DNA of 64,000 nt, from positions 136,163-200,162 of the forward strand of contig CAYORN010000004.1 of NCBI GenBank assembly GCA_964406405.1, read 5' to 3'. A program made the translations under genes and the position numbers. The notes beneath the pieces were generated by a model. The model did no database searches. It saw only the letters and a list, made by a program, of their open reading frames with translations, and was not told where the DNA came from. The stretch comes from an uncultured Alphaproteobacteria bacterium. GTDB lineage: Bacteria > Electryoneota > RPQS01. Positions 13,219 to 64,000 of this stretch are shown one piece after another. Positions within the stretch are counted from its first letter, which is position 1. Each line of letters starts with the position of its first letter.

Positions 13219-13230
13219 GTTCATACTTCA
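13219..13230. repeat. Right arm of the inverted repeat bracketing the four-helix-bundle gene
   Basis: See 12822-12833. Confidence 0.85.
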
Positions 13231-13239
13231 TAGTTGAAG

Positions 13240-40827: not shown

Positions 40828-40861
40828 GTGATTTCTCTTCCACCGCCAGAGCGGTTATTCC

Positions 40862-41265: not shown

Positions 41266-41322
41266 CGGGGGCGCGGCAAGGGGGCTGAGATCCTTCACCT
41301 GCGAAGCCCTGAAGACGCAGGT

Positions 41323-41712: not shown

Positions 41713-41968
41713 CCTGAACCCCTAAGTCTTCGAGGGGGTGAAGGATCTCGGCTTCGAGGCTATGACCGGACTAGTTCTTCAGGCAATTGAAAACATATTC
41801 CAAGCAGCGCACGGGGGCTGAGATTCTTCACCTGCGAAGCGCCAAGACGCAGATTCAGAATGACAAGACGGGGGCGCGGCACGGGGGCTGAGATTCTTCA
41901 CGTTCTCCTCGGACCAATACCCCGGAGGGTATTGGCTAGTGAGCGGAACGTTCAGAATGACAAAACCA
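41701..41968. repeat. Further copies of the GTCATCCTGA...GAAGGATCTC / GAGATTCTTC...TCAGAATGACAA palindromic repeat family
   Basis: A forward-type copy at ~41706-41745 is followed by ggcttcgaggctatgaccgg, as in the 213-bp units. Reverse-type copies lie at ~41818-41868 and ~41884-41965. One more reverse-type copy lies at 41285-41337. Confidence 0.7.
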
Positions 41969-41982
41969 AGAGGACTCTTTTT

Positions 41983-42010
41983 CAAGTTTCAAGTTTCAAG
42001 TTTCAAGTTT
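41983..42010. repeat. Heptamer tandem repeat (caagttt) x4 abutting the sucB stop codon
   Basis: caagtttcaagtttcaagtttcaagttt. The last 2 nt are part of the sucB stop codon (TAA on the minus strand at 42009-42011). Confidence 0.9.
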
Positions 42011-43256: not shown

Positions 43257-43274
43257 CGAATGAAAATTGAGAGA

Positions 43275-49200: not shown

Positions 49201-50459
49201 TACGAGATACGTTTTTGGTGTGGCATGTCAACTATTTTCCCGGAACCAACGCCGGGCGAGTGAAGGTGGTGGCCTCTGACGGCTGGAACAACAGTGCGGA
49301 CTCGAGTGATGGGACGTTCACGGTGGCGATGCATAATCCGGTGGCGCACATCGAATCGCCACAGGATACGGCGACGATTCTCGCAAGTTCGTATGTCTCG
49401 CTTTCAGGGCAGGCGAGCGATTTGGAAGATGGGAATATTCCTTATGACAGCCTGTCCTGGAATGACGGGGCGAATCCGGTGGGAATTGGGAGTCTGATCC
49501 AAGTGGACAGTTTGGCTCCCGGATTGCACACGATCACGCTGATGGCGATTGACCGCGACGGAAATGCGGGGTATGCCTACGCGCACGTGAATGTGCTGGC
49601 GGACAACGATCGCGATGGGATGAGCGATGCATGGGAAGCGGCACATCACCTCGACACGACACGGAATGATGCGTATGCGGATTATGACCTCGATGGATTG
49701 ACGAATGGGCAGGAATACAATCTCGGAACGTTCCCGGATAATACGGATACCGACAACGACGGGCATACCGACGGCGAGGAGGTCGCACGCGGCTCTGATC
49801 CGCTCGATGCCGCGTCCATTCCCACGACCGTGTCGCTCACGAATCCCACGGCTATCAGCTCTATCGGCACGCTGGGATTCAATGATCCGGTGATCTTCAT
49901 CTGGAGTGCCTCGTCGGCGGATGATTCGCTGCGCCCGATTCGTTACGAGGTGCAAGTGGATGCCGATCCGAATTTCTCGAATCCGCTCGTGATCTTTGCA
50001 GACACATTGCTCAGCATAACCTCGCCGTGGCAACTCTCGGTGGGCTTGACTTACTCATGGAAAGTGAAAGCAACAGACCTCTACGGACACTGGGTGTGGA
50101 GCAACATAGCGACGTTTACGCGCGGGCACAATCCACAAGTTCCGGTACGGGTCACAGACTTGACGGCGCAGGTGGTAGGCGACACGCTGTGGCTGCATTG
50201 GAGTCCGGTGACCGTGGATACGAGCGGGAATCCGGTCACGGTGGGATTGTACATCATTTCGGCGGCCCCGGCGGTGGACGCGGAGTATCTGCCGATTGCC
50301 TACACGACGACGAATGCATGGACGGACACAGCGGCATTCAATCTTGAATGGCCGACGTGGTTCTACGTTGTCGAGGGGAGCACAGATCAAAATCCGCCGC
50401 AAATTTTTTCACGGCGCAACTGGCCGGGGATGGAACAAATGCGGCGTACGAGGGATTAG
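46278..50459 (+). CDS. Giant secreted multidomain protein: N-terminal parallel beta-helix, CarboxypepD_reg-like domain, HExxH metalloprotease-like region, Ig-like modules, thrombospondin-type-3 Ca-binding repeats and a C-terminal FN3-like domain
   Basis: 1393 aa with signal MKIFARVLASMAVLILGQTTFG and beta-helix repeats (...GGGVWC, GNTAWQGGGVSV, SGNHADNVIGGVDL, VDNSAPYNVGGLSI). Also GSISGVVRNEQNNPLNGAAITL...YSLTNVAAGTYEIWVSKTGY, then VVAHELGHSIAGL (HExxH) and DNDRDGMSDAWE...DYDLDGLTNGQEY...DTDNDGHTDGEE. Confidence 0.8.
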   Translation: MKIFARVLASMAVLILGQTTFGQLSGPLSGVLGPGTFTVVGQCTVRAGNSLTVRPGTTLRANGPYGLHVYGNLQANGTQTQPIVLTGIGWWGLKIYTNSSGNSLQYCQVSGSVRSGVVCYGSAELTRCTVSSNTAPAGSATYGGGVWCRQGCSMTFFGCSIMGNTAWQGGGVSVWNGSVTFYNSLISGNHADNVIGGVDLQGEGAFINCTIVDNSAPYNVGGLSIWGSDSHLLSSSVIANNSGPTGGIRGWSGAAMQIRNCDFFGNSGGNFSGTLPSGLGQIVTTNPNGDPCDQYQNIFLNPQFIGGGDYHLSNASPCLGAGDPSDAPSTDMDGHARPCPPGARPDMGSYETPNCTYGCPDGSISGVVRNEQNNPLNGAAITLHRIDQWALNRTVYSDGSGAYSLTNVAAGTYEIWVSKTGYIQITQTNWTIGCNEPQTLWFTMHPLDFSISSVDVFQTVLYFQPEPLIANKATVVIVPISNPNHINGYVRARLTMKDNGVPVPGFEPMTSSVFWVKPSYSVQDAENWTDALYFTIMPPPRDHITFEVQLLSEDGTPHSAPIQSAEHRFVRSRDLTLRFIPITTADHRNWYQTFSNTYMNSTSDRLRGMLPYSNINFSLSGTPVGVLSSSTDPLVLGEVRLNMMAWLALNGIVSADVFYVCMMPTWSIDPSNPGLIGQSGRLCLPFDAGRFLPLRYCVFVGTQADADNPVNASVVAHELGHSIAGLNLCEELYQPGVCERPSRPCELDFWGLNTHPMSTCTLDRMSLKSGSGSHDIMTDGAAWGFCNTWVRWDSTYRKFKELALGWLPPLKDNIRLEDAGPYCVISGIVARDHSAAPLFQVENFAGEYTPVLLDSGVFHADWYDAEWNTLLQTLYFDPVFERREGLLDYADFFIVTSRPANARNMILYDGDTEVGRITGTGAVPQVSLAAPNGGESLLDSTIVRWTASDADLDSLQFDVFANRDGGNWEPLAMGIRDTFLVWHVNYFPGTNAGRVKVVASDGWNNSADSSDGTFTVAMHNPVAHIESPQDTATILASSYVSLSGQASDLEDGNIPYDSLSWNDGANPVGIGSLIQVDSLAPGLHTITLMAIDRDGNAGYAYAHVNVLADNDRDGMSDAWEAAHHLDTTRNDAYADYDLDGLTNGQEYNLGTFPDNTDTDNDGHTDGEEVARGSDPLDAASIPTTVSLTNPTAISSIGTLGFNDPVIFIWSASSADDSLRPIRYEVQVDADPNFSNPLVIFADTLLSITSPWQLSVGLTYSWKVKATDLYGHWVWSNIATFTRGHNPQVPVRVTDLTAQVVGDTLWLHWSPVTVDTSGNPVTVGLYIISAAPAVDAEYLPIAYTTTNAWTDTAAFNLEWPTWFYVVEGSTDQNPPQIFSRRNWPGMEQMRRTRD

Positions 50460-51383: not shown

Positions 51384-51529
51384 TTCCCCCACCCCCTATG
51401 ATCCCCCAACCCCCTTAGTCCCCCTACTGAAGTAGGGGGAGATAAGAAACAAACAAGCCCCCCAGTCGGTGACTGGGGGGTAGTTGTTATCACTGGTTTG
51501 GTAACGGACGGTTACTTCATGCTGGCGAG
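51384..51529. repeat. Direct repeat copy 2 flanking hicAB (includes the functional terminator and the true 3' end of the S8 gene)
   Basis: See 50460-50581. A related C-tract stretch extends the element left to about 51369. Confidence 0.8.
51441..51480 (-). terminator. Rho-independent terminator of the S8 peptidase gene
   Basis: 10-bp stem ccccccagtc/gactgggggg (51458-51480), followed on the minus strand by CTTGTTTGTTTCTT. Confidence 0.7.
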
Positions 51530-53374
51530 CAGCTCGGCGGAGCGCTTGGGGTTGATCAGCTTGACCGGGCGTTCGCCGGCGGTCTTGGGATCGCAGCCGT
51601 CTATGATTAACTGGCGCACCTGCGCGGAGGTCAGCTTGGGATTCATCGCCCAGAGTTTCCCCGCAAGATTCACGACGTTCGGCGAGGACATCGAGGTGCC
51701 GCTGAGCTTCATCTGATCGCCGCCGGGGACGTAGCTCATGACTTCGAAGCCGTTCGCATACACGTCCACCTTGCCGAAGCTGGTGAAGCTGGTTTCTTCG
51801 CCGGCCTGATCCACCGCGCCCACGGTGAGCACGTTGGGCAGCTCGAAGGAACTCGGATAGAACTCCTCGAACTTCACGTCGTTATTCGAGTTTCCGGCGG
51901 AGGTGATGAACAAAATATCCGGCGCGTTCTTGATCGCGTCGAACAGGGCGACGCGGGTGATTTCAAAAATCTCGCGCGCCTTGGCCTTGCGCTCATCCGG
52001 CGTCTCGCCATAGTTGTTTCTTTCGAGCGCGTCTTCCACGCTGGCGAGGCTGTTGCCCCAGCTCATGTTGACCACGCGCACGCCGTTCTGCTTGAAGTAC
52101 GCGACGGTCTCCTGCTCGGCCTTGGCTTCCTTGTTCGCCAGCTCGACGGTCGGCAGCTCGGGCATCACGTGATAATCGAACGTAATGCGCGCCGCGAGCA
52201 CCCGCGCGAACGGATTGCCGTGCATGGCGATGCCGGCTACGTGCGTGCCGTGGCAGTAGTTGCCGTACTTGCCGACATTCTCCCAAAAGTCCTTCATCGA
52301 ATCCTGCGGCAAGGTGGAGATGATCTTCTTGAAGTCCGCGGCTTCCAGGCTTTCCACGCCAGAGCCGACGTCTTCCAGCCCCTTCATCAGGCGCTGCAAA
52401 CGCGGGCGATCCTTGGACACATCGCCAATCGGGAAGAGCAGCGGAACGTCCTTGTCGGAGTGCAGCGTCCAGGCGATGCCGTGCACGTCGTCCACGAAGC
52501 CGTTGTTGTCGTCGTCCTTGCCGTTGGCGGGGACCTCTTTCGTATTGGCCCATAACTGGTCTTTGAAAATATCCGTGTCCACGCCGGAATCCCAGACCGC
52601 GAGTACGACCAGACTCTTTTTGTCTTCTTTGGCGAAGGTGACTTCGCGACCCGCCCAAATGTTGGGCTTGACCACATCATGCGCGGACAGGTATTCGGTG
52701 TACACGGCGGCGGCTTCTTCCTTGAGCGGAATGAACGTGCGAACGGACCACGCCTGACTCAACAGGCCGGTGGCGATGTCCTTACTCATCTCGCCCTCGC
52801 TCTTGTCAAGCACGGGCTGCACGGCGGACTCGATCATGCCGAACATCATCGGCTGGGAGACGATTTCCGCGTTGCCCTTGTTCTGCTTGATGATCGCTTC
52901 GCAGTCTTTGTAATCCAGACCGTCGAGCAGCTTTTTCAACTCGGCACGAAACACCGGTTTGATGTCGCCGCCCTGCTTCTTGGCGGCGATATACGCCTGC
53001 GCGAACATGCCGGTCGTGGCCTTGATCGAAGTCTTGTCTTCCAGTTCCTTGCGTTTTTGCAGGTAGCTGAGATAGAGGTCGTAGTTCCCTTCGAGCAGCG
53101 CGATCGTGCTCAGGTTGGCGTAGAAATCCTTGAGCGTGGTCTTGTCGGCGATCTCGTACTTGTTCAGATCGTCTTCGAGGTCTTTTTTCACTTCGCCGGC
53201 GAGCTTCATCAGCGCGGCGTCGTTCTGAATCACTTCCGTCGCCTTCATGTTCACCTTGTAGGTGTGACGCGGCAGATCGTCGAGTTTTTCGATCTTGATC
53301 TTGCCCTCGGCGAACGCGGAACCCATCCACGTCAGTAGCGCCAATGCCAGCAGTCCAGCCAAACATTTCTTCAT
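51512..53374 (-). CDS. Secreted S8 family serine peptidase
   Basis: 620 aa with signal MKKCLAGLLALALLTWMGSAFA and the triad motifs AVWDSGVDTD, HGTHVAGIA and GTSMSSPNVVNLAG. Confidence 0.9.
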   Translation of the reverse strand: MKKCLAGLLALALLTWMGSAFAEGKIKIEKLDDLPRHTYKVNMKATEVIQNDAALMKLAGEVKKDLEDDLNKYEIADKTTLKDFYANLSTIALLEGNYDLYLSYLQKRKELEDKTSIKATTGMFAQAYIAAKKQGGDIKPVFRAELKKLLDGLDYKDCEAIIKQNKGNAEIVSQPMMFGMIESAVQPVLDKSEGEMSKDIATGLLSQAWSVRTFIPLKEEAAAVYTEYLSAHDVVKPNIWAGREVTFAKEDKKSLVVLAVWDSGVDTDIFKDQLWANTKEVPANGKDDDNNGFVDDVHGIAWTLHSDKDVPLLFPIGDVSKDRPRLQRLMKGLEDVGSGVESLEAADFKKIISTLPQDSMKDFWENVGKYGNYCHGTHVAGIAMHGNPFARVLAARITFDYHVMPELPTVELANKEAKAEQETVAYFKQNGVRVVNMSWGNSLASVEDALERNNYGETPDERKAKAREIFEITRVALFDAIKNAPDILFITSAGNSNNDVKFEEFYPSSFELPNVLTVGAVDQAGEETSFTSFGKVDVYANGFEVMSYVPGGDQMKLSGTSMSSPNVVNLAGKLWAMNPKLTSAQVRQLIIDGCDPKTAGERPVKLINPKRSAELLASMK

Positions 53375-53516: not shown

Positions 53517-53545
53517 TTGAAACTGGCGTCCATTCCTTGTATATT
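53517..53545 (+). promoter_or_regulatory. Candidate promoter of the aminopeptidase gene
   Basis: TTGAAA-17 nt-TATATT, about 55 nt upstream of the ATG at 53600. Confidence 0.45.
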
Positions 53546-53599
53546 GCAGTCCTTCAATTTCCTCTTCCGTTTTACCAAACACCTTTCCAGAGACATACC

Positions 53600-54730
53600 A
53601 TGGCAGATCCCCGTTACGGTGAGCTCGCGCGCGTGCTGGTGCACCATTCTATCAGCTTGAAGCCGGGCGAAAAGGTGCTGATTGAAGCGATTGACGTTCC
53701 TCACGATTTTACCGCCGCGCTGGTGCAGGAAGTTTGCGACGCGGGCGGCCTTCCGGTCGTGGAGCTGAAGCAGCAGTACGTGCTGCGCAAGTTGTACATG
53801 AATGCGACGCCGGAGCGCATGCATCTGATTGCGGATTGCGAGTTGTATCGCATGAAGCAGATGAACGCGTACATCGGCGTGCGCGGCATTTTCAATTCCA
53901 AGGAACTCTCCGACGTGCCCGCCGAGAAGATGTCGCTCTACGAGACGCTCTGGTTCACGCCGGTGCATCACGGCCAGCGCGTGCCCTCGACAAAGTGGGT
54001 GGTGCTGCGCTTCCCGTCGCCGCAGATGGCGCAAATGGCGAAGATGTCGCTGGAAGCGTTCGAGAATTTCTACTACGACGTGTGCACCAAAGTGGACTGG
54101 AAGAAGGCCGAAGAGGCGATGAAGCCGGCCGTCGAGTTCATGAAGCAGACCGACCGCGTACATATCAAAGGCCCCGGCGAAACCGATCTGAAATTTTCGA
54201 TCAAAGGGATTAACGTGCAGCCGTGCGGCGGACATTACAACATTCCCGATCTGGAGGTTTTCACCGCGCCGGTCAAGGACTCGGTGGAGGGCGTGATTCA
54301 CTACAACGCGCCGTCCTCGTATCGCGGGTTCACCTTTGAGAATGTCCGCCTGCGGTTCGAGAAGGGCAAGGTTGTGGAGGCGACGGCGAACGATACGCCG
54401 CGGATCAACAAGATTTTCGATACGGATGAGGGCGCGCGCTACGTCGGCGAATTCGCGCTGGGGTTCCACCCGTACATCATGGAGGCGATGGATGACATTC
54501 TGTTTGACGAGAAAATCTGCGGATCGTTGCACTTCACGCCCGGCGCCTCGTATGAGAAGGAGGCGGACAACACGAACCGCTCAGCGATTCACTGGGACCT
54601 GGTGCTGATTCAGCGCCCGGAGAAGGGTGGGGGGGAGATCTGGTTCGACGACAAGCTGATCCGCAAGGACGGCACGTTTGTGCATCCGGCGTTCACGGCG
54701 ATGAATCCGGAAAACTTGCGCATGAAATAG
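53600..54730 (+). CDS. M29 family aminopeptidase (AmpS/PepS-like)
   Basis: MADPRYGELARVLVHHSISLKPGEKVLIEA... with ...EGARYVGEFALG and ...HFTPG......NRSAIHWDLV, which are typical M29 blocks. Start set to the ATG at 53600. Confidence 0.9.
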   Translation: MADPRYGELARVLVHHSISLKPGEKVLIEAIDVPHDFTAALVQEVCDAGGLPVVELKQQYVLRKLYMNATPERMHLIADCELYRMKQMNAYIGVRGIFNSKELSDVPAEKMSLYETLWFTPVHHGQRVPSTKWVVLRFPSPQMAQMAKMSLEAFENFYYDVCTKVDWKKAEEAMKPAVEFMKQTDRVHIKGPGETDLKFSIKGINVQPCGGHYNIPDLEVFTAPVKDSVEGVIHYNAPSSYRGFTFENVRLRFEKGKVVEATANDTPRINKIFDTDEGARYVGEFALGFHPYIMEAMDDILFDEKICGSLHFTPGASYEKEADNTNRSAIHWDLVLIQRPEKGGGEIWFDDKLIRKDGTFVHPAFTAMNPENLRMK

Positions 54731-54802: not shown

Positions 54803-56353
54803 CTATTTCAGCAGGACGATTTTCACGGGCGGGACGGTGGACTTCGCCAGCGTGACGAAGTAGACGCCCGATGCCAGACCTTCTCCGGACAGCGTAACGT
54901 GTTGAGTGCCGGGATGAAGTTTGGCGGTGAAGGAGCGGGCCAGCCGCCCGGTGACATCGTACAAGCGGATCTCCTGCGGCATGGAAACCGCGCTCGCGAT
55001 CTCCAGCCTGATCTCGGAGTTGAAGGGATTCGGATAGGCTGCCTCGATGCGAATCTCACGAGGGATAGATCCCGTCGGCGGCTCCACACTCAGCGGGTCG
55101 AAGATCACGGTGTAGTTGCCGCTTGGCCGCATTGCCAAGGTGAGCGTGTCGTTGGCATAGACAAAGGGGAAGTTTGTGCCGTTACGCCGCACCTGAAGTA
55201 CGGCGGTCGGCAAGCCGGTGAAGCGGACGGTCACGAGCGGAATTGCAAGGGAGTCGCGATTGATCCAATGCCCGGTCAACGAATCGTAATCCCACCACGG
55301 AAGGGCGAATTCGATGTCGATCGCGGCAATGTTGCGGATGAGATTGATATTCAGCTGTCGTGCGGCCCAGTCGTAATTCGCGCCGTAACGTCCGAAAACA
55401 TGATTCGTGTCTGCCAGCGTGACTCGCGTCCAATAGTATTCATCGCTTTCGTCGGCGTTGATGGAAAGTTCGTGGGGAAAGCGATTCACGGAGAATCCGG
55501 ACAGCCAGTTGAGCGTGCTGTCCGTGCGCAAGTTGGGCCAGCCATGTGTGGCTAAGCCCGAACAGGCGACGAAGGTCGTTTCGGCGTTGTCGGCTTGTCT
55601 CAGAGTGTCCCATCGTTGAGCGGGATGTCCATAAGCAAACCACTCCGCTGACCAGCTCGAGTCGGTAGTTCCCCAGCGGGCATAGCACGGAAGATGAAGG
55701 CTGTTAAAGTGCATCGACTGAGAGGTGTCTTCCAAGTGAACGGCGCTGGTGCGATGATACTCGAAATCCACGGCTGCGCTGGTATCGGGAATGCCGCCGA
55801 AGGCCTCAATCATGGCATTGTTGATGTGGCCGGAATCAATATACTGGTGCTGGCGCAATTCACAATCCAGAATGGGAGAACCTCCGGCAGCAGCCGCGAG
55901 GGGATAACTCAATATGCCGCAGTGGTTGTTGTGCCAGATGAATCCCGCCGCGGCGCCCATGGAACTCCCGACCATATATACGGAATCGCGGCTGAACGGG
56001 TAGTTGTCCATGATCCAGTCCAGCATTGTACGGCAATGATTCTGGGCGATGCGGCCATTATAGTGATGAGTGTTGGGGCCGCCGGTATGACATGCGCCAA
56101 TCCAGTGCCGCGCATTGAGCGAATCCGCCCAGCCGTCGGCTCCCAGCAGCTCGTGCCGGTCGCCTCCATAGCCATGCCACCATGAGAGTATAGCCGGTGG
56201 ATTCGCCGGATCATATCCTTCCGGAATCTGAACCCAGAAGTAGTTCGTGTCACCTTCAGAGATCACAACGGAGGTGTCAATCCGTACCGGTTGGGCGGGC
56301 AGCATAGTGGTGAACCCGGCCAGCAGAAAGAGCAAAAAGAGCACGACGTGCAT
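54803..56353 (-). CDS. Secreted alpha/beta-hydrolase (esterase-like) with a T9SS type-A C-terminal sorting domain
   Basis: Signal MHVVLFLLFLLAGFTTMLPAQ and a GxSxG-type nucleophile elbow (MVGSSMGAAAG). The C-terminus YPNPFNSEIRLEI...IRLYDVTGRLARSF...GTQHVTLSGEGLASGVYFVTL......KIVLLK is the Por/T9SS CTD pattern. Confidence 0.8.
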   Translation of the reverse strand: MHVVLFLLFLLAGFTTMLPAQPVRIDTSVVISEGDTNYFWVQIPEGYDPANPPAILSWWHGYGGDRHELLGADGWADSLNARHWIGACHTGGPNTHHYNGRIAQNHCRTMLDWIMDNYPFSRDSVYMVGSSMGAAAGFIWHNNHCGILSYPLAAAAGGSPILDCELRQHQYIDSGHINNAMIEAFGGIPDTSAAVDFEYHRTSAVHLEDTSQSMHFNSLHLPCYARWGTTDSSWSAEWFAYGHPAQRWDTLRQADNAETTFVACSGLATHGWPNLRTDSTLNWLSGFSVNRFPHELSINADESDEYYWTRVTLADTNHVFGRYGANYDWAARQLNINLIRNIAAIDIEFALPWWDYDSLTGHWINRDSLAIPLVTVRFTGLPTAVLQVRRNGTNFPFVYANDTLTLAMRPSGNYTVIFDPLSVEPPTGSIPREIRIEAAYPNPFNSEIRLEIASAVSMPQEIRLYDVTGRLARSFTAKLHPGTQHVTLSGEGLASGVYFVTLAKSTVPPVKIVLLK

Positions 56354-56388: not shown

Positions 56389-57975
56389 TTAGAAACGATA
56401 GCCGACCTCGGCAAACCCGCGGTTGGCGTCGAGGCCGTCGCCGCGGTAGATTTCGCCGTACAGCGAGCCGTAGATATGACGCGTGAGATTCCAATCGGCG
56501 TTCAGGCGAATCCATTGATTGCTCAGGTCAGTGCCGGACTGAGTAATTGTATAGTCGTTGCGGCCGACCTCGAAAGTCAGACGAACTTGAGAAACAATAT
56601 TGCGGGAAAGTGTGAGGGTGGGCTGGAACCCTTTGCTGTAGCTGCTCTCGAAGATCGCGACTCGCACATCGGACTGCAAGCCGGGGGCCATCAGGCTATA
56701 GCTGCCGACGCCGCCGGATGCGCTGCGGGTCTCGGTACCCTCGTTCTGCTTGGTGCGAATGCCGGCGTCCGCCGACGCGTAGAGCTTGGTCGAGAATTTC
56801 ACATTCGTTCCCAATCTCCAGCCCTGCCGCAAAGCGTCGTCAAATAAGCTATCGGGAGTGTTGCGGGTTTCGTAGGTACGGTAGTTTGTGCGGTTGTCGT
56901 AGCTCAGCGTTGTCGAAAGCCACGTGAGCGGCGAGTAGCGCGCGTTAAGGAGAATGTTGGTCAGCTCGAGCGTGGAGCCTTCCGCGTCCCGGCGCCAGCC
57001 GCGGTTGATGTTCATCTCCGCGCTCTGGTACATGTACAGCTTCTGCATCGCATACGAGACTTGCTCGTAGAGGAACTCGCGGCTGATCTGCCCGGTGAAG
57101 TAATTTCCGGCCAGCGCCAGCGTGCCGCTCAGCTGCGTCGTGGCGTAGCTGCCGCGCTCATAGGCGGCAAACACGCCGCCCTTCGTGGCGTCGCCGTTGA
57201 CGTCGTAGGTACGCAGGTCCGGCTGCGCTCCACCGAACATGCCGACGGACCAGCTTCCGTTCATGCGGTAATCAAGCATGGCGCCGTCGAGATAGCCGAT
57301 GCCGCTCATGCGGTTCGACAGCAATCGCCCGGCGCTGTAGTGCAATCGCGTTTCGGGGTTATTGTAGTACAGACCAAACTCATACACGCGGTGCGTCCAG
57401 TCTTCATCGGGGCCGTGCGCACGATCGGTTTTGCGGCTTCGCGTTCTGATGCTCAACGTGTGTTGCGAGCCGAGCAGATTATTCACCTGCATGCGCAGGG
57501 CGAAGGCCGGTTCAACGTAATCGTTGCCGCTGAGACTGCGATCATCCTGTGATAGCGCCTGTACGCTGGCGCGGCCCGTGACGCGGTTGCTTTTCACGCG
57601 CGCGGATTTTTTCGGCTGCGGAACGGGCGGGGGCACCACCGGAGAAGGCGACGTCGTTCCTGAGTCCGGTTTGATTTCTTTCACCGGCGGCGTGATCTGC
57701 ATGACCACGCGGTCGCCGACCTGCGGTGTGGTTGTGCTCTCGATGAACTTACAGGACGCCGAATTCTCCGCGAGAAATTCCACTTCCACCCGCGCGATGA
57801 CGGAGTCACCGTGGAAGACTTCGCCCTGATCGCCCTTCTGGAGACCCTGCGCAGCGCCAGCATCGAGGTAAACGGACGAGGCGGCGACGTACTTCACGGC
57901 GGTTTCGAACGGCATGCCGAAACCAAGGCCCGAGAACAGCGCCAGAAAAACGATTACAAGTGCTGAGCGTTTCAT
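56389..57975 (-). CDS. Outer-membrane beta-barrel protein (porin-like) with an N-terminal soluble domain and a Pro-rich linker
   Basis: Signal MKRSALVIVFLALFSGLGFG, a ~85-aa domain, and the linker TPPVKEIKPDSGTTSPSPVVPPPVPQPKK. About 400 aa of alternating-polarity strands rich in Y/G/N/S/R follow, ending ...GFAEVGYRF (aromatic C-terminal residue). Start set to the ATG at 57975 (GGAGAG RBS). Confidence 0.7.
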   Translation of the reverse strand: MKRSALVIVFLALFSGLGFGMPFETAVKYVAASSVYLDAGAAQGLQKGDQGEVFHGDSVIARVEVEFLAENSASCKFIESTTTPQVGDRVVMQITPPVKEIKPDSGTTSPSPVVPPPVPQPKKSARVKSNRVTGRASVQALSQDDRSLSGNDYVEPAFALRMQVNNLLGSQHTLSIRTRSRKTDRAHGPDEDWTHRVYEFGLYYNNPETRLHYSAGRLLSNRMSGIGYLDGAMLDYRMNGSWSVGMFGGAQPDLRTYDVNGDATKGGVFAAYERGSYATTQLSGTLALAGNYFTGQISREFLYEQVSYAMQKLYMYQSAEMNINRGWRRDAEGSTLELTNILLNARYSPLTWLSTTLSYDNRTNYRTYETRNTPDSLFDDALRQGWRLGTNVKFSTKLYASADAGIRTKQNEGTETRSASGGVGSYSLMAPGLQSDVRVAIFESSYSKGFQPTLTLSRNIVSQVRLTFEVGRNDYTITQSGTDLSNQWIRLNADWNLTRHIYGSLYGEIYRGDGLDANRGFAEVGYRF

Positions 57976-57995
57976 ATGAAGTCTCTCCATGTGCG

Positions 57996-60371
57996 CTATT
58001 TCTGATTTGAACGCGGTATCGGGTGACGGAGGCCGCCACCGCCACCCGTGGGGTGGCAATTGTAGCAGGCGCTACTCTGGTAGACATATCCCTGCACGTC
58101 GGAGTGTTCCTCATCCATGTCATTCTGGTGATGACACGTGATGCAAGTGAACTCGCCGAAATTATTCGGGTTCGAATGGCAATCGGCGCAGGTATTCCAC
58201 TCGCCCTCATGGCGCCCGGAGTAGATTGGGAACCACTGCTGATCGTGATTGAACTGCGCCGGAGTCCAACCGGAGGTGCTGTGACAGTCCTGACAGGTTG
58301 TGGGGAAGCCCGCAGCCTGATGGTTTGGATTATTTGAACCGTTGTAATCTGCCTGATGGCAGAACGCGCATGCGGTGGGCGTATTCTGGTACTGGCCGTT
58401 GACGTGGCAGGCGACACAACTCACGCTGACATGCGCGCCCGTCAAGGGAAACTGCGTCTGGCTGTGATCGAAGGTGGCCGGCGACCACGCCGCGGTCGTA
58501 TGGCACTCGGCGCACGCATGACTAAACTGATTCGACACGTGATTCGGATCCGCCACACCGTCGTAATCCTGCTGGTGGCAGGCATAGCAGTCGGTCGGCG
58601 TATTCTGATATTGACCGTTGACATGACACGATGCGCAATTGGCGTTAATATGCGCTCCGGTGAGCGGGAACTGCGTTTGATTGTGATCGAAGGTCGAAGG
58701 CGTCCAAGCCGCCGTCGTGTGACACTGCGCGCAATCGTGGCTGAACTGATTGCTGACGTGATTGGGATTCGTGGCGCCCTCGTAATGCGTTTGATGGCAC
58801 GACCAGCAATCCGTCGGCGTGTTATTGAACTGTCCATTGATATGACACTGCGCGCAGTTGAGACTCACATGCGCCCCAGTCAGCGGAAAGTCAGTTCCGC
58901 CATGATCAAAGCTCGCCGGCGACCAGGCGATGTCCGTATGGCATTGAGCGCAAGCATGATCAAGATTCCCCGCCACATGATTGGGGTCCTGCGCGCCTTC
59001 GAAGTCGGTCTGGTGACAAGCCCAGCAGTCCGTAGGAGTGTTCGCATACTGCCCGTTCACGTGGCAGGCCTGACACGTGGCGGCGATGTGCGCGCCGGTC
59101 AGCGGAAAGGCTGTCTGATCATGACTAAAGGTCGAGGGCTGCCAAGCGGACGTGGTGTGGCATTCTGCACAGCTCTGGCTGAATTGTGCAGCGGCGTGCT
59201 CCGGTTCCGTTGCGTTCTGATAATCCTGTTGGTGACAGGAGTAACAGGCTGTCGGGATTCCGGTGTATTGCCCGCCGACGTGGCACTCGGCGCAGGATAC
59301 TGCAACATGCGCACCAGTCAGCGGGAAAGCAGATTGTGAATGATCGAACGAAGCGGGGGCCCAGCCGTCCGTGCTATGACAGCTTGAGCAATTGTGATCG
59401 TAGTTGCCGGCCACGTGATTCGGATTCGTCGTGCCGGTGTAATGGGCTTCATGGCAATCGTAGCACGCGCTCGAGGCGCCGGTGTACTGCCCGTTGGCGT
59501 GGCACTGAGCGCAATCTACCGTGGCGTGCGCGCCGGTCAGCGGAAACCCGGACAAGTTGTGATCGAACGACGCCGGCTGCCAGCCATCAATCGTGTGACA
59601 TCCGGCGCAGTCATGACTGAACTGATTGTTGACGTGCTCGGGATTCGACGCGCCGGTATAGCTGGCTTCATGGCAATCGTAGCACACACTGGACGTGTTG
59701 ACGTAGCCACTCGTGTGACAAGCGGCGCACGTTGGCGACGCATGACCGGCGATCAGCGGGAAGGAAGCCGCGTGCGTGAATTTCGCATCGGTCCAGCTTG
59801 CCGCGACGATGTTGTGGCAGTCCTCACACTTTATCGAGAAGCCAGCCGCCGCATGCGCGGGACTCGTTGTCTGCTGATAGGTGGCCATATGACAGCCCTG
59901 GCAATTCACCGGGACGTTAACGTATTGTCCGTTCGCATGGCACTGCTGGCAATCGAGCGATGCGTGCACGCCGACGAGCGGGAAGCGCATCTGCTGGTGC
60001 CGCGCGAGCATTTGCTCTTGATTATTCCAGGTCTGCTGCGTGTGGCACTCCTCGCATGAATTCTGCGCAAACTGTCCGCGATGAACGTCCAAGTGGCAGT
60101 CCTTGCAAGCGGTCCCCGCTTCAACGAACACGGGATTCGCGTGGCAGGCAATGCAGGCGACAGAGACATGCCGGTCCATCAACGGAAACTTCGTTCGCTG
60201 ATGATCGAACTGCATATCAGGCCGCATCTGCGTCCAGCCCTCCGTCGTATGACAGGAGTTGCAGGTGACGGTCAGCGGACCATGCGGATTCTCCACGTCA
60301 GCCCAGGCGACAGTTGTGATCAGCAGGGCGAGCGGGGCGAAAAGGAGAAAGCAGATCTTAGCGAGGTTCAT
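57996..60371 (-). CDS. Multiheme c-type cytochrome, 31 CxxCH motifs
   Basis: 791 aa with signal MNLAKICFLLFAPLALLITTVAWA. I counted 31 CxxCH by hand. Built largely from tandem triheme modules. Confidence 0.9.
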   Translation of the reverse strand: MNLAKICFLLFAPLALLITTVAWADVENPHGPLTVTCNSCHTTEGWTQMRPDMQFDHQRTKFPLMDRHVSVACIACHANPVFVEAGTACKDCHLDVHRGQFAQNSCEECHTQQTWNNQEQMLARHQQMRFPLVGVHASLDCQQCHANGQYVNVPVNCQGCHMATYQQTTSPAHAAAGFSIKCEDCHNIVAASWTDAKFTHAASFPLIAGHASPTCAACHTSGYVNTSSVCYDCHEASYTGASNPEHVNNQFSHDCAGCHTIDGWQPASFDHNLSGFPLTGAHATVDCAQCHANGQYTGASSACYDCHEAHYTGTTNPNHVAGNYDHNCSSCHSTDGWAPASFDHSQSAFPLTGAHVAVSCAECHVGGQYTGIPTACYSCHQQDYQNATEPEHAAAQFSQSCAECHTTSAWQPSTFSHDQTAFPLTGAHIAATCQACHVNGQYANTPTDCWACHQTDFEGAQDPNHVAGNLDHACAQCHTDIAWSPASFDHGGTDFPLTGAHVSLNCAQCHINGQFNNTPTDCWSCHQTHYEGATNPNHVSNQFSHDCAQCHTTAAWTPSTFDHNQTQFPLTGAHINANCASCHVNGQYQNTPTDCYACHQQDYDGVADPNHVSNQFSHACAECHTTAAWSPATFDHSQTQFPLTGAHVSVSCVACHVNGQYQNTPTACAFCHQADYNGSNNPNHQAAGFPTTCQDCHSTSGWTPAQFNHDQQWFPIYSGRHEGEWNTCADCHSNPNNFGEFTCITCHHQNDMDEEHSDVQGYVYQSSACYNCHPTGGGGGLRHPIPRSNQK
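58254..59780 (-). repeat. Seven tandem in-frame 71-73-codon repeats, each encoding a triheme module
   Basis: aa 198-706. Consensus: FDH.QT.FPLTGAH....C..CHVNGQY.NTPT.C..CHQ.DY.G...PNHV.NQFSH.CA.CHTT.AW.P(A/S)(S/T). The unit boundaries were counted by hand. Confidence 0.85.
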
Positions 60372-60428
60372 GTTGCGCCTCTGTATGGCGGCTTGTTTGC
60401 GTTCTCGAGGGTGCGGGGGGACGCGTAC

Positions 60429-62135
60429 TTAGTTCGTATTCTTCACTTGATGGGTGCCGTGGCAGTCCGCGCACTCCATTTTCAGCGGGCGATAGACGAT
60501 GAATTGCACATTGTCGGCGCCCACGCTCGGCTTATGGCACGCGGCGCAAGCGACTTTGGCGTGCGCGCCGTCGAGCTTGTAGCGGGAGTCGGTGTTATGA
60601 ACAAACTTCGGTTCTTTCCATCCCAGCGGGGAGTGGCAGCGCTGACAGTCCGTGGAGGTCTCGTTCAACTCGGAACGCACGAACTGGCCTTGATGCAGAT
60701 CCTTGTGGCACGTATTGCACTCGACCGCGATAGGCTTCATCCACGTCACCTTCTCATCGGTGCCGATCTTCTTGACCGTGTGGCAGGAGAGGCAGGGAGC
60801 TTCGCGGTGCTTGCCCTCGAGCACGAACCGGCTGAGCTTGTGGTCGAAGGTGGTGCGGTGCCACGTTTCAGTTGTGTGACAATACTCACAGCCGCTCTGC
60901 GCGGTCCATTTATCAAGCTGTCCCTGATGCGGATCTTTGTGGCAGCCCTTGCACGTCAGGTCAGCGAAATCATACTTGGCATGCGGTTTCGCATTACCGT
61001 TGGCGATCGGCGTATGGCAAACGAAACAGGGCACGGCGAGATGACTGCCGGTCAGCGGATAGCGGCACTGCTGATGGTTCTCCAGCGTAAACTTCGCGCC
61101 GACAAACCCATCCACCGCGTGGCAGCTCTCACACTTGCCTTTATCCTGCCGATCGGCAAACTGTTTATGATGCGCGTCCTTGTGGCAGTCGCTGCAGAGC
61201 GCGAACGCGAGCGGCTCGGTCATCTTGCCGGTGGCGTGGCACTTTGCGCAACCCACAGAGACGTGCTTGCCGAGGAGCGGATAGTCGGTCTTCTTATGAT
61301 CGAAGAGCTTGCCGACGATTTGCTGAAAGCTCGCCGTCGTGTGGCAGTCCTGACAGTTCGGTCCGAACCTATTCTTATGCGGGTCCGTGTGGCAGGGCGT
61401 GCAATTGGAGAAGTTCAGACCGACATATCGGGCGGCAAAGCCCACGTTCTCTTTTTTGGCAATCCGGCTCGCATCGGGTACCGCCACCGTTTCCAGCAGG
61501 TGACACTTGGCGCAATCTGCCTGCTGATGCTTGCCCGTAAGCGGATACTTCGTCCTATCGTGCGAAAACTTTTCGGCCGGCTTCCAGGCGTTGAAACTGT
61601 GGCAGCTCGCGCAGTCGTTGCTCATCTGCTCGCCGTGCTCGGCCGCATGGCAACTCAGACAGGCGGCGCTCAGACCGAGATAGCTTGTAAGCGCATTGAT
61701 GCTCTTGTCCGAGCGAACTGCGTCCGACGTGAACTCAGGTTTGTGGCAATTCCGACAGCCGGTCTTGGCATGCGCGCCGGTGAGCGGGTAGCCGGTCAAG
61801 CTGTGGTCAAACTGATCCTTGCCTTGCGTCCAGTGCACCAATTCAAACTCGCGGCCGTTGTGGTCGGAGTGGCAGTGCCCGCAGGTGCCGGCCTTGACTT
61901 CGGATGAGTTGTGGTATCCGGCTCCGGCTTCGATGCGAGATTTAAGAACCGTGTGGCACGTCAGACACTTGGCGCTCGACAGCTCTTTGCCGAGTTCGTG
62001 GCACAAAGTGCAGTTCGACAGCCCTTCGAGCTTTTCGTGAGACTGGGAGAGCTTGCCGGGCGAGATCTGCGCCCACGCGGAGCAAACAAAAGCGAAAAGC
62101 AAAAAGCAAGAAAGCAGACAGAGCAGCCGCTTCAT
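60429..62135 (-). CDS. Multiheme c-type cytochrome, 20 CxxCH motifs
   Basis: 568 aa with signal MKRLLCLLSCFLLFAFVCSAWA. 20 CxxCH counted by hand, with a recurring F.H....YPL.G.H....C..CH ... C..CHKD.H.GQF pattern. Confidence 0.9.
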   Translation of the reverse strand: MKRLLCLLSCFLLFAFVCSAWAQISPGKLSQSHEKLEGLSNCTLCHELGKELSSAKCLTCHTVLKSRIEAGAGYHNSSEVKAGTCGHCHSDHNGREFELVHWTQGKDQFDHSLTGYPLTGAHAKTGCRNCHKPEFTSDAVRSDKSINALTSYLGLSAACLSCHAAEHGEQMSNDCASCHSFNAWKPAEKFSHDRTKYPLTGKHQQADCAKCHLLETVAVPDASRIAKKENVGFAARYVGLNFSNCTPCHTDPHKNRFGPNCQDCHTTASFQQIVGKLFDHKKTDYPLLGKHVSVGCAKCHATGKMTEPLAFALCSDCHKDAHHKQFADRQDKGKCESCHAVDGFVGAKFTLENHQQCRYPLTGSHLAVPCFVCHTPIANGNAKPHAKYDFADLTCKGCHKDPHQGQLDKWTAQSGCEYCHTTETWHRTTFDHKLSRFVLEGKHREAPCLSCHTVKKIGTDEKVTWMKPIAVECNTCHKDLHQGQFVRSELNETSTDCQRCHSPLGWKEPKFVHNTDSRYKLDGAHAKVACAACHKPSVGADNVQFIVYRPLKMECADCHGTHQVKNTN

Positions 62136-62145
62136 GAAGAAATTG

Positions 62146-62694
62146 CTAATTCAGTTTCGTGAGCGATTGCTTCGCAAACAGAGCGAGCGTGTCCTGCGGG
62201 TGCGCGGCGATCAGTTTTTCCCAATGCATCTTTGCCAGACCCGGCTGCCCCGTATTGGCTTCAATCGCGCCCATGTTGTATAAGGCGCCGGCGTGATCCG
62301 GCTGCCGGTCCAGAATCCATTGAAGCTCCGCTTTCGCCTCGACCGGCTTGTTCATCGCATAAAGCGATTTCGCCACGTCGAGACGCACTTCCCAGCCGGT
62401 CGAGGAGGTGTCGAGCTTCAGGAACTCGCGATAGTATTGAAGGGCTTTCACATGCTCACCCTCCTCGGCGTAGAGATTGCCCAGTTGCAGCGCGATCGGG
62501 GCATGATTCGGATGCTCCTTCCACATCTGCTCCATCATCGTGATCTCGGTGTGCGGGTCTTTGTCGTCCATCTGGTCCAGCGCCTGCGGAACAGACGTCT
62601 TGCTGCCGCCCATGTACAGTGAGGCAATCACGGCAATGACCACGGCCACTCCCGCGACGAAGCCCCACGCCCGCGCATTGGATCGTTGCGCCAT
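62146..62694 (-). CDS. Membrane-anchored TPR protein (NrfG/CcmI-like in architecture)
   Basis: 182 aa with one N-terminal TM (WGFVAGVAVVIAVIASLYMG) and then about 3 TPR units (ALQLGNLYAEEGEHVKALQYYREFLKLD..., AGALYNMGAIEANTGQ...). TAATG overlap with the upstream gene. Confidence 0.65.
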   Translation of the reverse strand: MAQRSNARAWGFVAGVAVVIAVIASLYMGGSKTSVPQALDQMDDKDPHTEITMMEQMWKEHPNHAPIALQLGNLYAEEGEHVKALQYYREFLKLDTSSTGWEVRLDVAKSLYAMNKPVEAKAELQWILDRQPDHAGALYNMGAIEANTGQPGLAKMHWEKLIAAHPQDTLALFAKQSLTKLN

Positions 62695-64000
62695 TAACGC
62701 TCTCCGAACTTACGTGAAAACACAATACCGATCTTTTTCAGAAACTCGGTCGGCAATTCGCCGCCGATCAATACAAACACCTGATCATTGAGCAGCACGA
62801 CTTCATGTCCGCTCTGCTCAAGATAGACCTTGTCCGGCTCGATCCGCGTGACGGTGGAATTGAAGAGCGGATTCACGATGCCTTTGTTGATGGCCTTTTC
62901 GATGCGCGTGCTGTTGCCCTCCTTGATGCGGAACAAGCCTTCGCCGCGATAGGAGAGATGGACGGTTGTGCCCGGCTGTTCGGCGAGCGCGAGGCTGGCC
63001 TCGACCGCGCTGTCACCGCCGCCCACGACGAGGATCTTCAAGTCATGGAATTTTTCCGGCTCGAGAATGCGGTACGCCACCTTGTCGGACTTCTCGCCGG
63101 GGGCATTCAACTTGCGCGGAGTGCCGCGGCGACCGATGGCCAGCAGGACGCGCTTCGCGTCGTACTGGCTCTGAGTGGTCACCACATGGAAGTGGTCGTC
63201 CAGGCGGGTCACTTCGGTCACGCGCTGATTGGAATCCACGACCAATCCGGTGCGGTTCATCACATCGTTGAAGATCTCCAACAGCGATTCCTTTTCGATC
63301 TCGCGGGCGTTCACCGAGCCATAGAGGGGCAATTCCATCGGCGCCGTCATCACCAGCTTGCGGCGCGGATAGGTAAGCACGGTGCCGCCAAGATCCTCCT
63401 GATCCACGATCACGAATCGCAGTCCATCCTTCTTGGCCTGCAAAGCGGCGGCGATTCCCGCCGGACCCGCGCCGACGATCACGAGATCCAACGGTTCTTT
63501 CCTGGACTCGGAAGCGAGGCTCTTGGCTATGTTTTGCACGGCCTGCTTGCCTTGGGTCACGGCGTTGCGGATCAAACCCATCCCACCCAGTTCGCCCGCG
63601 ATATACACGCCGGGGACATTGGTTTCGTAGGTCCCTGTCACGTGCGGGATGTCCACGCCGCGCTTTTCCGTGCCAAAGACGAGCGTGATTGCGTCCACCG
63701 GGCACGCAGCCTGGCACAGGCCGTGACCGATGCAGCGCGAGGGATTGATCAGTGTGCCTTTGCCGTCTATGAGCGCGAGCACGTCCACTTCGGGGCACGC
63801 CTCGACGCACGCGCCCGACCCCATGCATTTACTCGGGTCAATATAGGGATGCAGCGAGACCGGTTGATCCAGTCCGCGCTCGATCGCTTTCTTCAGGATT
63901 CCCGCGGCGCGGCGGCTCTTCTTCCGCTCTTTGACGACATAGTAGACGGGGACGCCCAGCGTGAACAGCACCACGACAGCGTAGATCAGGACTTCAAGCA
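62694..64000 (-). CDS. Membrane-anchored 2x[4Fe-4S] ferredoxin domain fused to an FAD/NAD(P)-dependent (thioredoxin-reductase-like) oxidoreductase; the 5' end may lie beyond the window
   Basis: CMGSGACVEACP...CIGHGLCQAACP (dicluster), VPGVYIAGELGG, VIVGAGPAGIAAALQAKKDGL (GxGxxG) and ILVVGGGDSAVEASL. The reading frame stays open to the window edge upstream of the GTG at 63974. Confidence 0.8.
   Translation of the reverse strand, partial: LEVLIYAVVVLFTLGVPVYYVVKERKKSRRAAGILKKAIERGLDQPVSLHPYIDPSKCMGSGACVEACPEVDVLALIDGKGTLINPSRCIGHGLCQAACPVDAITLVFGTEKRGVDIPHVTGTYETNVPGVYIAGELGGMGLIRNAVTQGKQAVQNIAKSLASESRKEPLDLVIVGAGPAGIAAALQAKKDGLRFVIVDQEDLGGTVLTYPRRKLVMTAPMELPLYGSVNAREIEKESLLEIFNDVMNRTGLVVDSNQRVTEVTRLDDHFHVVTTQSQYDAKRVLLAIGRRGTPRKLNAPGEKSDKVAYRILEPEKFHDLKILVVGGGDSAVEASLALAEQPGTTVHLSYRGEGLFRIKEGNSTRIEKAINKGIVNPLFNSTVTRIEPDKVYLEQSGHEVVLLNDQVFVLIGGELPTEFLKKIGIVFSRKFGER

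Follow-up and report, generated by a model that had tools for sequence, protein, structure and literature searches.

A candidate trans-envelope electron-export module in an uncultured bacterium of the Electryoneota lineage

The gene cluster and its products

A 64,000-nucleotide stretch of contig CAYORN010000004.1 from an uncultured bacterium (assembly GCA_964406405.1; GTDB lineage Electryoneota), hereafter called the window, ends in a cluster of five co-directional genes on the minus strand. In the direction of transcription these encode an iron-sulfur (FeS) flavoprotein of ~435 amino acids (aa), here called oxred (62694..64000, open to the window edge), a membrane-anchored tetratricopeptide repeat (TPR) protein of 182 aa (62146..62694), the multihaem cytochromes cytA (568 aa; 60429..62135) and cytB (791 aa; 57996..60371), and an outer-membrane barrel of 528 aa (56389..57975). 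The list of open reading frames (ORFs) of the window and their translations bore out the five-gene layout described in a first-pass annotation of this DNA, with successive gaps of -1, 10, 57 and 20 nucleotides (nt). The flavoprotein was recognised by Pfam, NCBIfam and its motifs, the TPR protein by Pfam TPR families, cytA by its motif count and signal peptide, cytB by motif count and repeat register, and the barrel by an AlphaFold2 model. Four of the genes, those for oxred, cytA, cytB and the barrel, are among the five core genes of a conserved trans-envelope module of the Fibrobacteres-Chlorobi-Bacteroidetes (FCB) group, for which we predict a function in electron export with a probability of about one half.

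Exactly 20 CxxCH motifs were found in cytA and 31 in cytB, which matches the hand count of 51 in the first-pass annotation. In the rest of the window, taken as six-frame stop-to-stop segments no shorter than 100 aa (48,304 aa together), this motif does not occur at all, and therefore a chance origin of the 51 motifs is excluded. The resulting 28.4 aa per haem in cytA and 25.5 in cytB are low ratios of the kind that has been tied to wire-like cytochromes (PMC5566968). A catalytic haem motif (CxxCK or similar) was not found in either cytochrome. Both carry signal peptides of the signal peptidase I (SPase-I) type, and among 34 cytA and ~55 cytB N-termini there was no conserved lipobox, as had been noted before for the two window proteins. 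Moreover, a C-terminal domain of the type IX secretion system (T9SS) was not found in either of them.

In cytA the SPase-I site is followed by a conserved mature N-terminus, Q(I/L)SPG, and the protein is predicted to be a periplasmic wire exported via Sec and SPase-I. Its haem number is stable, since 33 of 36 complete cytA homologues also have 20. Pfam matches comprised Cytochrome_C7 (74.1 bits), Cytochrom_c3_2 and an MtrC domain II/IV-like family. The predicted partner of the barrel is cytB, in which a signal peptide is followed by ten tri-haem units and, at the C-terminus, a tail with one haem. Seven units are canonical 73-aa repeats reading C..CH ... FPLTGAH ... C..CH ... C..CH ... NPNH; the first three and the last deviate more from this pattern. 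The haem counts of the cytB family, which range from 10 to 49, follow the rule 3n+1 in 57 of 70 ORFs, and N-cap, repeat and C-cap are common to all members. Where several cytB paralogues are present, it is a 10-haem version of ~265 aa that adjoins the barrel. Pfam Cytochrome_C7 matched six stretches of cytB (111.5 bits), which corresponds to tandem c7 domains. For both cytochromes the NCBIfam models for DmsE/MtrA, HmcA and nanowire cytochromes stayed far under their cut-offs (48.4 and 43.6 bits against 192.2 for TIGR03508, DmsE/MtrA; 19.7 bits against 40 for cytB with TIGR04257, nanowire_3heme), and no PDB sequence matched.

The barrel was modelled with AlphaFold2 on the basis of 39 homologues (mean predicted local distance difference test score, pLDDT, 87.5). 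The model comprises a signal peptide, a small periplasmic beta domain (aa 22-93, nt 57912-57697), a proline-rich linker (aa 94-130, nt 57696-57586) which is disordered at residues 100-124, and a barrel domain (aa 131-528, nt 57585-56392) whose 22 strands span aa 131-527. Sequence and model thus agree with the N-terminal soluble domain, the proline-rich linker and the ...GYRF terminus (here ...EVGYRF) described in the first-pass annotation, and the strand number lies outside the range of 8-16 which it would have regarded as too small for a conduit. A C-alpha diameter of ~4 nm follows for a 22-strand barrel from textbook geometry, and such a lumen could just admit a chain one haem wide. An extended start at TTG 58059 was dropped in favour of ATG 57975, which fits the lengths of the relatives and the database gene call for the same protein (P0001, likewise 528 aa).

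No Pfam or NCBIfam family matched the barrel at E<=0.01. A profile search of all PDB sequences to E<=10 returned nothing relevant, with no match at E<=1 and two chance-level matches at E=1.9. Foldseek against the PDB found generic barrels of 18-24 strands only (MOMP, the PapC/FimD ushers, AlgE and Occ porins) with query-length normalised TM-scores of 0.21-0.43, and MtrB was absent from the top 50 matches. A TonB-receptor plug and the TonB_dep_Rec signature were not found by Pfam and NCBIfam, the N-terminal domain being carried on a disordered linker and not forming a plug. An identity as nutrient porin, TonB receptor or MtrB is thus unsupported by any of these searches, in agreement with the view that the barrel is no ordinary nutrient porin. 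Instead, a profile search among 1.84 billion representative proteins showed that it belongs to a large, unnamed and unannotated family with 3,938 clusters at E<=1e-3 and 1,214 at E<=1e-30, clusters being representatives at 50% identity. The most conserved stretch of the barrel, ...YDNRTNYRTYETRxTPDSLFDDALRQG... (window 56800-57000, residues ~324-388), occupies the loops between strands 11 and 12 and between strands 13 and 14, the longest two of the barrel; by strand parity these are extracellular or fold into the lumen. For a surface loop, an acidic sequence so strongly conserved is unusual, and it may contact the cytochrome.

The flavoprotein had been taken for a complete ORF at 62694-64000, but its start codon is lost at the window edge. 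The reverse strand begins there with 'TG CTT GAA GTC', i.e. (M)LEVLIY, in agreement with the MLE(T/V)LIY N-termini of relatives. Therefore, we place the ATG at 64001-63999, one base outside the window. An N-terminal transmembrane helix (~63998-63933) is followed by KERKKSRR, which puts the FeS and flavin domains in the cytoplasm. Two ferredoxin-type motifs follow, CMGSGACVEACP at 63827-63792 (CxxSxxCxxxCP) and CIGHGLCQAACP at 63734-63699 (CxxHxxCxxxCP). All six cysteines of the protein lie within them, three per motif, with the second Cys of the classic CxxCxxCxxxCP replaced by Ser and His, respectively. Of the first-pass description as a membrane-anchored 2x[4Fe-4S] NAD(P)/FAD oxidoreductase, the transmembrane anchor, the FAD site (GAGPAG, 63473-63456) and the NAD(P) site (GGGDSA, 63023-63006) hold, but with six cysteines an all-Cys ligation of two [4Fe-4S] clusters does not. 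The His of motif 2 is kept in nearly all homologues, while motif 1 is a complete CxxCxxCxxxCP in Calditrichia-type loci and has Ser, Thr, Ala or Val instead of the second Cys in the clade of the window.

Besides Fer4 families, Pfam identified Pyr_redox_3 (152 bits) in oxred, and the YpdA-like NCBIfam model TIGR04018 reached 173 bits, under its cut-off of 339.9. The nearest PDB sequences were Bdr/YpdA and ferredoxin-NADP reductases of the thioredoxin reductase (TrxR) type. As the flavin domain has no CxxC and no other redox-active Cys, oxred resembles the TrxR-type ferredoxin-NADP reductases rather than disulfide reductases; a function as disulfide reductase was ruled out since there is no spare Cys. 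Homologues of oxred occur in 52 related loci, where the gene precedes cytA or follows immediately after the barrel gene, so that the direct linkage to an NAD(P)H-type oxidoreductase seen in the first-pass annotation is a conserved trait.

Conservation of the module and a fifth core gene

In a synteny scan with one genome per species we found 72 loci with a barrel relative of 26-58% identity. They came from Calditrichota, KSB1, Zixibacteria, Krumholzibacteriia, Fibrobacteria, Ignavibacteriota, Gemmatimonadota, Candidatus Electryonea and unclassified metagenome-assembled genomes (MAGs). A cytB-type cytochrome lies beside the barrel in 69 of the 72, and of the three exceptions two have the barrel at the very end of a contig. 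All-against-all clustering of the flanking ORFs revealed a fifth conserved gene in 36 loci, which encodes a polytopic inner-membrane protein (IMP) of ~295-300 aa. When only the 28 well-flanked loci were considered (with no less than 8 kb on the upstream and 3 kb on the downstream side), 23 contained IMP, oxred, cytA, cytB and barrel. The co-conservation on which the first-pass annotation had made its proposal depend was thus found, and as the same gene set occurs in four gene orders, the linkage survives rearrangement.

Three of the 28 well-flanked loci (L018, L026 and L057) contain cytB and barrel without the other genes, with cytB proteins of 40-49 haems. L057 is located on the same chromosome (OY843751.1) as the complete module L042, and further genomes with two barrel loci were represented by the pairs L049/L073, L030/L053 and L014/L064. 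These satellite loci look like extra outer-membrane units that share one inner-membrane entry. Because of the adjacency in 69 of 72 loci, the satellite pairs and the 10-haem paralogue beside the barrel, we regard cytB and barrel as the probable outer-membrane unit of the module.

Two genes that the first-pass annotation had listed in the cluster or named as possibly co-transcribed with it are not core parts of the module. A homologue of the TPR protein was found in only 3 of the 72 related loci (L003, L008 and L009), all of them nearest relatives, and it was therefore rejected as a core component. The TPR protein showed a weak, sub-threshold match to the CcmH/CycH TPR domain (16.9 bits, cut-off 42), which is a hint that it might act as an apocytochrome chaperone. 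The T9SS-tailed esterase-like gene, which starts 35 nt past the barrel gene, is not conserved; its matches in related loci arise via the sorting domain only and are scattered in position and strand, so that we do not regard it as a member of the operon. At the junction of barrel and hydrolase genes no convincing terminator or promoter signal was seen that would separate them either way.

Alignments of the IMP revealed invariant His pairs in two WX3HX13H motifs as well as an SGxxG motif. In the AlphaFold2 model (pLDDT 82.7) the protein has five transmembrane helices with a helical insert of ~110 aa between the fourth and the fifth. The insert is basic (23 Lys and Arg) and hence cytoplasmic by the positive-inside rule, which places one His of each pair near each membrane face. 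This geometry is that of a transmembrane wire with two b-type haems, and the IMP may bind haem in this manner. No detectable homology links it to the ferric-reductase-domain proteins (NOX/FRE/MsrQ/STEAP) or to cytochrome b561, and a membership in either family was rejected; Pfam Ferric_reduct reached at most 22.4 bits (cut-off 28).

In the nearest relatives (L001, L003, L004 and L007-L010) the flavoprotein gene is immediately preceded by the IMP gene, at a place that would fall just past base 64000 of the window. For an IMP of 311 aa (P0152), which is not encoded within the window, and for the window barrel P0001, the database lists one NCBI/Logan contig each, with a length of 359,021 bp in both cases. 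The IMP gene of this genome is thus probably located just beyond base 64000, and the earlier description of the module as self-contained is valid only if this fifth gene is included.

Similar arrangements were found outside the FCB group. A tblastn search of plasmids with IMP, barrel and cytB returned only Emticicia, described below, and one IMP-like gene of Methylophaga, whose product is a homologue of the IMP (hhalign probability 99.5). The Methylophaga gene lies between a reductase with a single transmembrane helix and FAD_binding_6, NAD_binding_1 and Fer2 domains and a 7-haem cytochrome c. The same triad of reductase, IMP-like protein and multihaem cytochrome c of ~250 aa is present in a Gemmataceae MAG and a Pseudomonas genome (L076:10073-13427 on the Methylophaga plasmid; L078:3233-6499; L079:3340-6508). 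A protein search with the Methylophaga IMP-like query found its own subfamily only. In the IMP superfamily, flavo-FeS dehydrogenases that use NAD(P)H and have unrelated folds thus recur as partners on one side, and a periplasmic multihaem cytochrome on the other. This pairing suggests that the IMP carries electrons from NAD(P)H in the cytoplasm into the periplasm, and it is the strongest comparative argument for such a putative role. The triads sit among metal-resistance genes (Metal_resist, P-type ATPase, RND pump), and the Methylophaga reductase has a Met/His-rich periplasmic N-terminal region. They may represent a periplasmic metal-reducing system.

The plasmid search with the IMP also showed that plasmid pEMTOL02 of Emticicia oligotrophica DSM 17448, a 100-kb plasmid of a cultured Cytophagales strain, carries the module (L075:6884-19468, corresponding to NC_018749.1 78197-90781). 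The order there is ccsBA, IMP, an 'NAD(P)-binding protein' with the same CxxS/CxxH motifs, cytochrome c3 family proteins of 635 aa and of 1001 aa (40 haems), and a hypothetical protein of 538 aa. The latter is a member of the barrel family (phmmer 3e-25; hhalign probability 99.9). The ccsBA gene before the module is a fused gene for cytochrome c maturation, and a gene for a GW-domain protein follows the module. A second redox cluster is found upstream on the opposite strand; it comprises a Rieske protein, a DUF5777 barrel, YceI, a c-type cytochrome, an ECF sigma factor and a further outer-membrane barrel.

Comparison with known systems

Judged by its published description, the predicted PCC3 cluster (Slit_0867-0870 type) is the system that the module most resembles in kind, with the FeS flavoprotein as an addition (PMC5566968). 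Shared are the layout with a porin beside two very haem-rich, repetitive cytochromes, the low number of aa per haem, the tri-haem repeats and the IMP motifs. For PCC3, median haem counts of 21 and 34 and a range of 22-39 aa per haem were reported, into which the cytochromes of the window fall, and one PCC3 cytochrome is built of tri-haem repeats of ~66 aa, compared to 73 aa here (PMC5566968). The IMP of PCC3 and PCC4 has ~300 aa, five transmembrane helices, SGxxG on the fourth and WX3HX13H on the third and fifth, which is also the case for the IMPs of the 36 related loci and for P0152. Besides, the PCC3 porin of Leptothrix cholodnii was predicted to have 22 strands (PMC5566968).

The module nevertheless differs from PCC3 in taxon, gene order, flavoprotein, haem rule and barrel family. 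PCC3 was reported in Alpha-, Beta- and Gammaproteobacteria only and has four genes without a flavoprotein, whereas oxred is conserved in 52 loci here. For PCC3 the quinone pool was proposed as partner and electron uptake as direction. Many of its porins exceed the barrel of the window by far in size, with up to 42 predicted strands. Furthermore, the repeat protein of PCC3 was called periplasmic and contains multiples of three haems, whereas in our module the repeat protein is the variable one beside the barrel and follows 3n+1. The module had been described as differently built from established conduits. With respect to the added flavoprotein this also applies in comparison with PCC3; the design itself has precedents in PCC3 and in a cluster of a Lentimicrobium MAG, which is considered below.

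The delivery of a multihaem cytochrome to the periplasm from a gene directly upstream of a large barrel is shared with MtrCAB, MtoAB and PioAB, and the smallest cytB paralogues, decahaem proteins of ~265 aa, are in the size class of MtrA. In contrast to MtrB, the barrel of the window has no match to MtrB_PioB (PF11854) or to a PDB sequence. The cytochromes do not reach the score of the DmsE/MtrA family, an analogue of the lipoprotein MtrC is missing, and electrons would enter via an NAD(P)H flavoprotein and the IMP instead of CymA and quinol. In Geobacter, the Pcc (OmbB-OmaB-OmcB) and Ext clusters likewise combine porin and cytochromes and were predicted or shown to span the outer membrane. 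Their outer cytochromes, however, are lipoproteins of 5-12 haems, as opposed to cytochromes without lipobox and with 20 to at least 31 haems here, and the sole NCBIfam contact was a weak similarity to ExtN/ExtO (E ~2e-3). The linear chain of tandem c7-like tri-haem units of ~70 aa is known from the GSU1996-family nanowire cytochromes of Geobacter. The TIGR04257 cut-off was not reached, though, and the cytB family sets itself apart by the 3n+1 rule and its conserved N- and C-caps.

With respect to the inner membrane, the proposed path from NAD(P)H via flavin and two bis-His b-haems to an acceptor outside resembles that of NOX/FRE and MsrQ-Fre, where the His pairs are also 13 residues apart on two helices. 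No homology was detected, however, and the dehydrogenase of our module is a separate, TrxR-like polypeptide with an FeS domain. The flavin-based extracellular electron transfer (EET) locus of Listeria encodes a dedicated Ndh2, so that there too an NAD(P)H dehydrogenase is part of an export locus which serves redox balance in a heterotroph. The Listeria system differs in being Gram-positive and quinone-dependent and in using a flavinylated lipoprotein without cytochromes or a barrel.

A 'gigantic porin-multihaem cytochrome cluster' without synteny to characterised PCC was described for a Lentimicrobium MAG (Bacteroidota), in which adjacent 61- and 20-haem cytochromes lie beside a porin (PMC13013709). 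Both the 61 haems, which correspond to 3n+1, and the 20 agree with the module, and by this description the cluster is very probably the same. That report is a one-sentence mention without IMP, flavoprotein, repeat rule or taxonomic survey. In our literature search no paper describing the module beyond this sentence was found, and the genome paper of Caldithrix abyssi does not mention it.

Proposed electron route and competing explanations

Our best reading, to which we give even odds, is that electrons pass from NAD(P)H to an extracellular acceptor without the participation of quinones. Cytoplasmic NAD(P)H would reduce the FAD of the membrane-tethered flavoprotein, from where the electrons would move through two ferredoxin-type FeS clusters, one of them with the conserved His at a ligand position, to the five-helix IMP of ~300 aa. 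Its two His pairs on the third and fifth transmembrane helices, 13 residues apart, would hold one b-haem near each face, and the outer haem would reduce soluble 20-haem cytA in the periplasm. Subsequently, cytA would pass the electrons to cytB, the chain of c7-like tri-haem repeats, which would be inserted in the 22-strand barrel or docked on it as MtrA sits in MtrB. Acceptors could be Fe(III)/Mn(IV) minerals, humics or partner cells. Such an outward flow from NAD(P)H would build no proton-motive force; its main benefit would be the regeneration of NAD(P)+ in a heterotroph that oxidises peptides and 2-oxoacids. This is in line with the NAD(P)H sources encoded in the window, since two 2-oxoacid dehydrogenase complexes, OPT peptide transporters and peptidases are found there.

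Among the alternatives, a system confined to the periplasm survives best, and we regard it as unlikely. The cytochromes would then be an electron store or a reductase of soluble acceptors such as chelated Fe(III), selenite/tellurite, metals or peroxide, and the barrel an ordinary diffusion pore. This would agree with the lack of lipobox, T9SS C-terminal domain or other export signal in the cytochromes and with Emticicia as a carrier, which we take to be an aerobic heterotroph. The IMP-like triads of Proteobacteria and Planctomycetota, which occur in metal-resistance islands and have no barrel, indicate that delivery of electrons from NAD(P)H to the periplasm has uses inside this compartment, and a porin in a Geobacter cytochrome cluster, ExtI, is reported to be linked to selenite/tellurite reduction (PMC5877670). 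However, the barrel stands strictly beside cytB, also where a satellite copy has none of the other genes, and with its 22 strands and a periplasmic domain of the docking type it is outside the known families of diffusion porins. A chain of at least 50 haems is also excessive for the reduction of soluble substrates, and the cytochromes contain no catalytic haem motif.

An inward flow from Fe(II), reduced minerals, a cathode or a partner cell via barrel/cytB, cytA, IMP and flavoprotein to NAD(P)+ seems quite improbable to us. PCC3 was defined in Fe(II)-oxidising bacteria, for which uptake was proposed, and a rise of its IMP gene along with iron-oxidation activity was reported for Sideroxydans CL21 (PMC12442390). 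Moreover, Mtr/Mto multihaem conduits are reported to be reversible (PMC10734462). By established bioenergetics, however, a transfer from Fe(II) to NAD(P)+ (~-320 mV) should be strongly uphill and opposed by the membrane potential. The candidate for uptake, proteobacterial PCC3, lacks the flavoprotein, and the window and the related genomes look organoheterotrophic (peptidases, OPT transporters, 2-oxoacid dehydrogenases), with nothing in the window that points to autotrophy.

We see only a slim chance that the barrel is an usher-like pore for export or assembly of cytB, which would then form a free or surface-tethered external wire while cytA alone bridges the periplasm. The length of cytB is highly variable (10-49 haems here and 61 in the Lentimicrobium MAG), as expected for an external appendage, the PapC/FimD ushers were among the top Foldseek matches with a TM-score of up to 0.43, and the N-terminal periplasmic domain with its linker resembles the substrate-recruiting domains of ushers or TpsB-type proteins. 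These scores are generic for large barrels, though, and usher, POTRA and secretin domains were not detected by Pfam and NCBIfam. In addition, a passage of folded, haem-loaded cytochromes through single-barrel pores is not known. Hardly credible is a role of oxred and IMP as maturation accessories that keep apocytochrome thiols or haem reduced during the assembly of more than 50 haems, with the conduit fed from the quinone pool by unlinked proteins, because, despite the ccsBA gene at the start of the Emticicia cluster, the faint CcmH/CycH-TPR similarity of the TPR protein and the relationship of the flavin domain to the thiol-disulfide reductase relatives YpdA and TrxR, oxred without CxxC or spare Cys cannot be a disulfide reductase, the triad of IMP, reductase and cytochrome recurs with small 7-haem cytochromes, and clustering of flanking ORFs showed no linked CcdA/DsbD-like component in the related loci.

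Several points weigh against electron export through the barrel as we propose it. The module is known here from its genes, their co-conservation, motifs, topology signals and predicted folds, from which cofactor binding, contacts between the proteins, the direction of electron flow and surface exposure are inferred, and the assignment of b-haems to the IMP is drawn from the spacing of its histidines. For this protein Foldseek found no match in the PDB at E<=1e-3, and hhalign against E. coli MsrQ and YodB gave a probability of 0.1, i.e. no profile similarity to MsrQ or cytochrome b561. The IMP lies outside the window, and its upstream placement is based on the matching 359,021-bp contig records and on synteny in relatives. 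With three cysteines per motif the type of the FeS clusters in oxred is uncertain; 3Fe-4S or His-ligated 4Fe-4S clusters are candidates. MtrB has 26 strands, the barrel of the window 22, and the smaller lumen might not take a c7-type chain. Without lipobox, T9SS domain or known export signal, cytB could stay in the periplasm. If Emticicia is an aerobe, as we assume, a role in anaerobic respiration only would be too narrow. Finally, the resembling PCC3 was still called 'functionally unverified' in 2025 (PMC12442390).

A wider claim is put forward more tentatively, as a possibility that we consider rather doubtful. According to it, the module would be a quinone-independent exporter built like a split NADPH oxidase, in which di-haem b IMPs of a new family draw electrons from interchangeable cytoplasmic NAD(P)H flavo-FeS dehydrogenases, TrxR-like in FCB bacteria and FNR-like in Proteobacteria and Planctomycetota, and hand them to periplasmic multihaem cytochromes. 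In the FCB group it would be coupled to a chain of at least 50 haems and a new family of 22-strand barrels. Fermentative or peptide-degrading members of Calditrichota, KSB1, Zixibacteria, Bacteroidota and related groups might in this way unload NAD(P)H directly on minerals, humics or partner cells, which would be an abundant and so far unrecognised route of EET in sediments.

The remainder of the window contains further genes of note. Three hydrolase genes adjoin the conduit, encoding an S8 subtilase (51512-53374, minus strand), an M29 aminopeptidase (53537-54730, plus strand) and the T9SS-tailed esterase-like protein (54803-56353, minus strand). The trio fits a proteolytic lifestyle, and in other genomes none of the three is kept beside the module. 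The minus strand also has 2-oxoacid dehydrogenase genes, in two sets. The first (10070-15389) comprises E1alpha, E1beta, E2 and E3 of the branched-chain or pyruvate type, and the second (38108-45983) a 2-oxoglutarate dehydrogenase E1 of 902 aa and E2, with an E3 of the lipoamide dehydrogenase type a little further along (38108-39574). Both sets are large sources of NADH near the conduit genes. Between two OPT oligopeptide transporter genes (26140-27999 and 29707-31992) lies a gene for a 495-aa protein with a C-terminal TIR domain (28144-29631, minus strand) in a stretch of low GC content (0.518 compared to ~0.59), which may be an acquired defence or signalling gene. Three very large ORFs probably encode secreted or surface proteins: one of 1526 aa without a Pfam match (32363-36943, plus strand), one of 1385 aa with a CARDB domain (18617-22774, minus strand) and one of 1393 aa with CarboxypepD_reg and TSP3 repeats (46278-50459, plus strand).

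The mechanism of EET is understood almost only in Shewanella and Geobacter, where the electrons leave via the quinone pool. The module described here is abundant, with ~3,900 clusters of the barrel family at 50% identity, is spread across many poorly known FCB phyla of sediments and is wholly unannotated. The copy on the plasmid of the cultured Emticicia oligotrophica DSM 17448 makes the question of its function directly testable. If our reading is true, the orphan IMP of PCC3 and PCC4 would gain a function, and there would be a direct path from NAD(P)H to the cell surface in which quinones take no part. For sediments and bioelectrochemical systems, the models of redox metabolism in the 'fermentative' Calditrichota, KSB1 and Bacteroidota would change as well.

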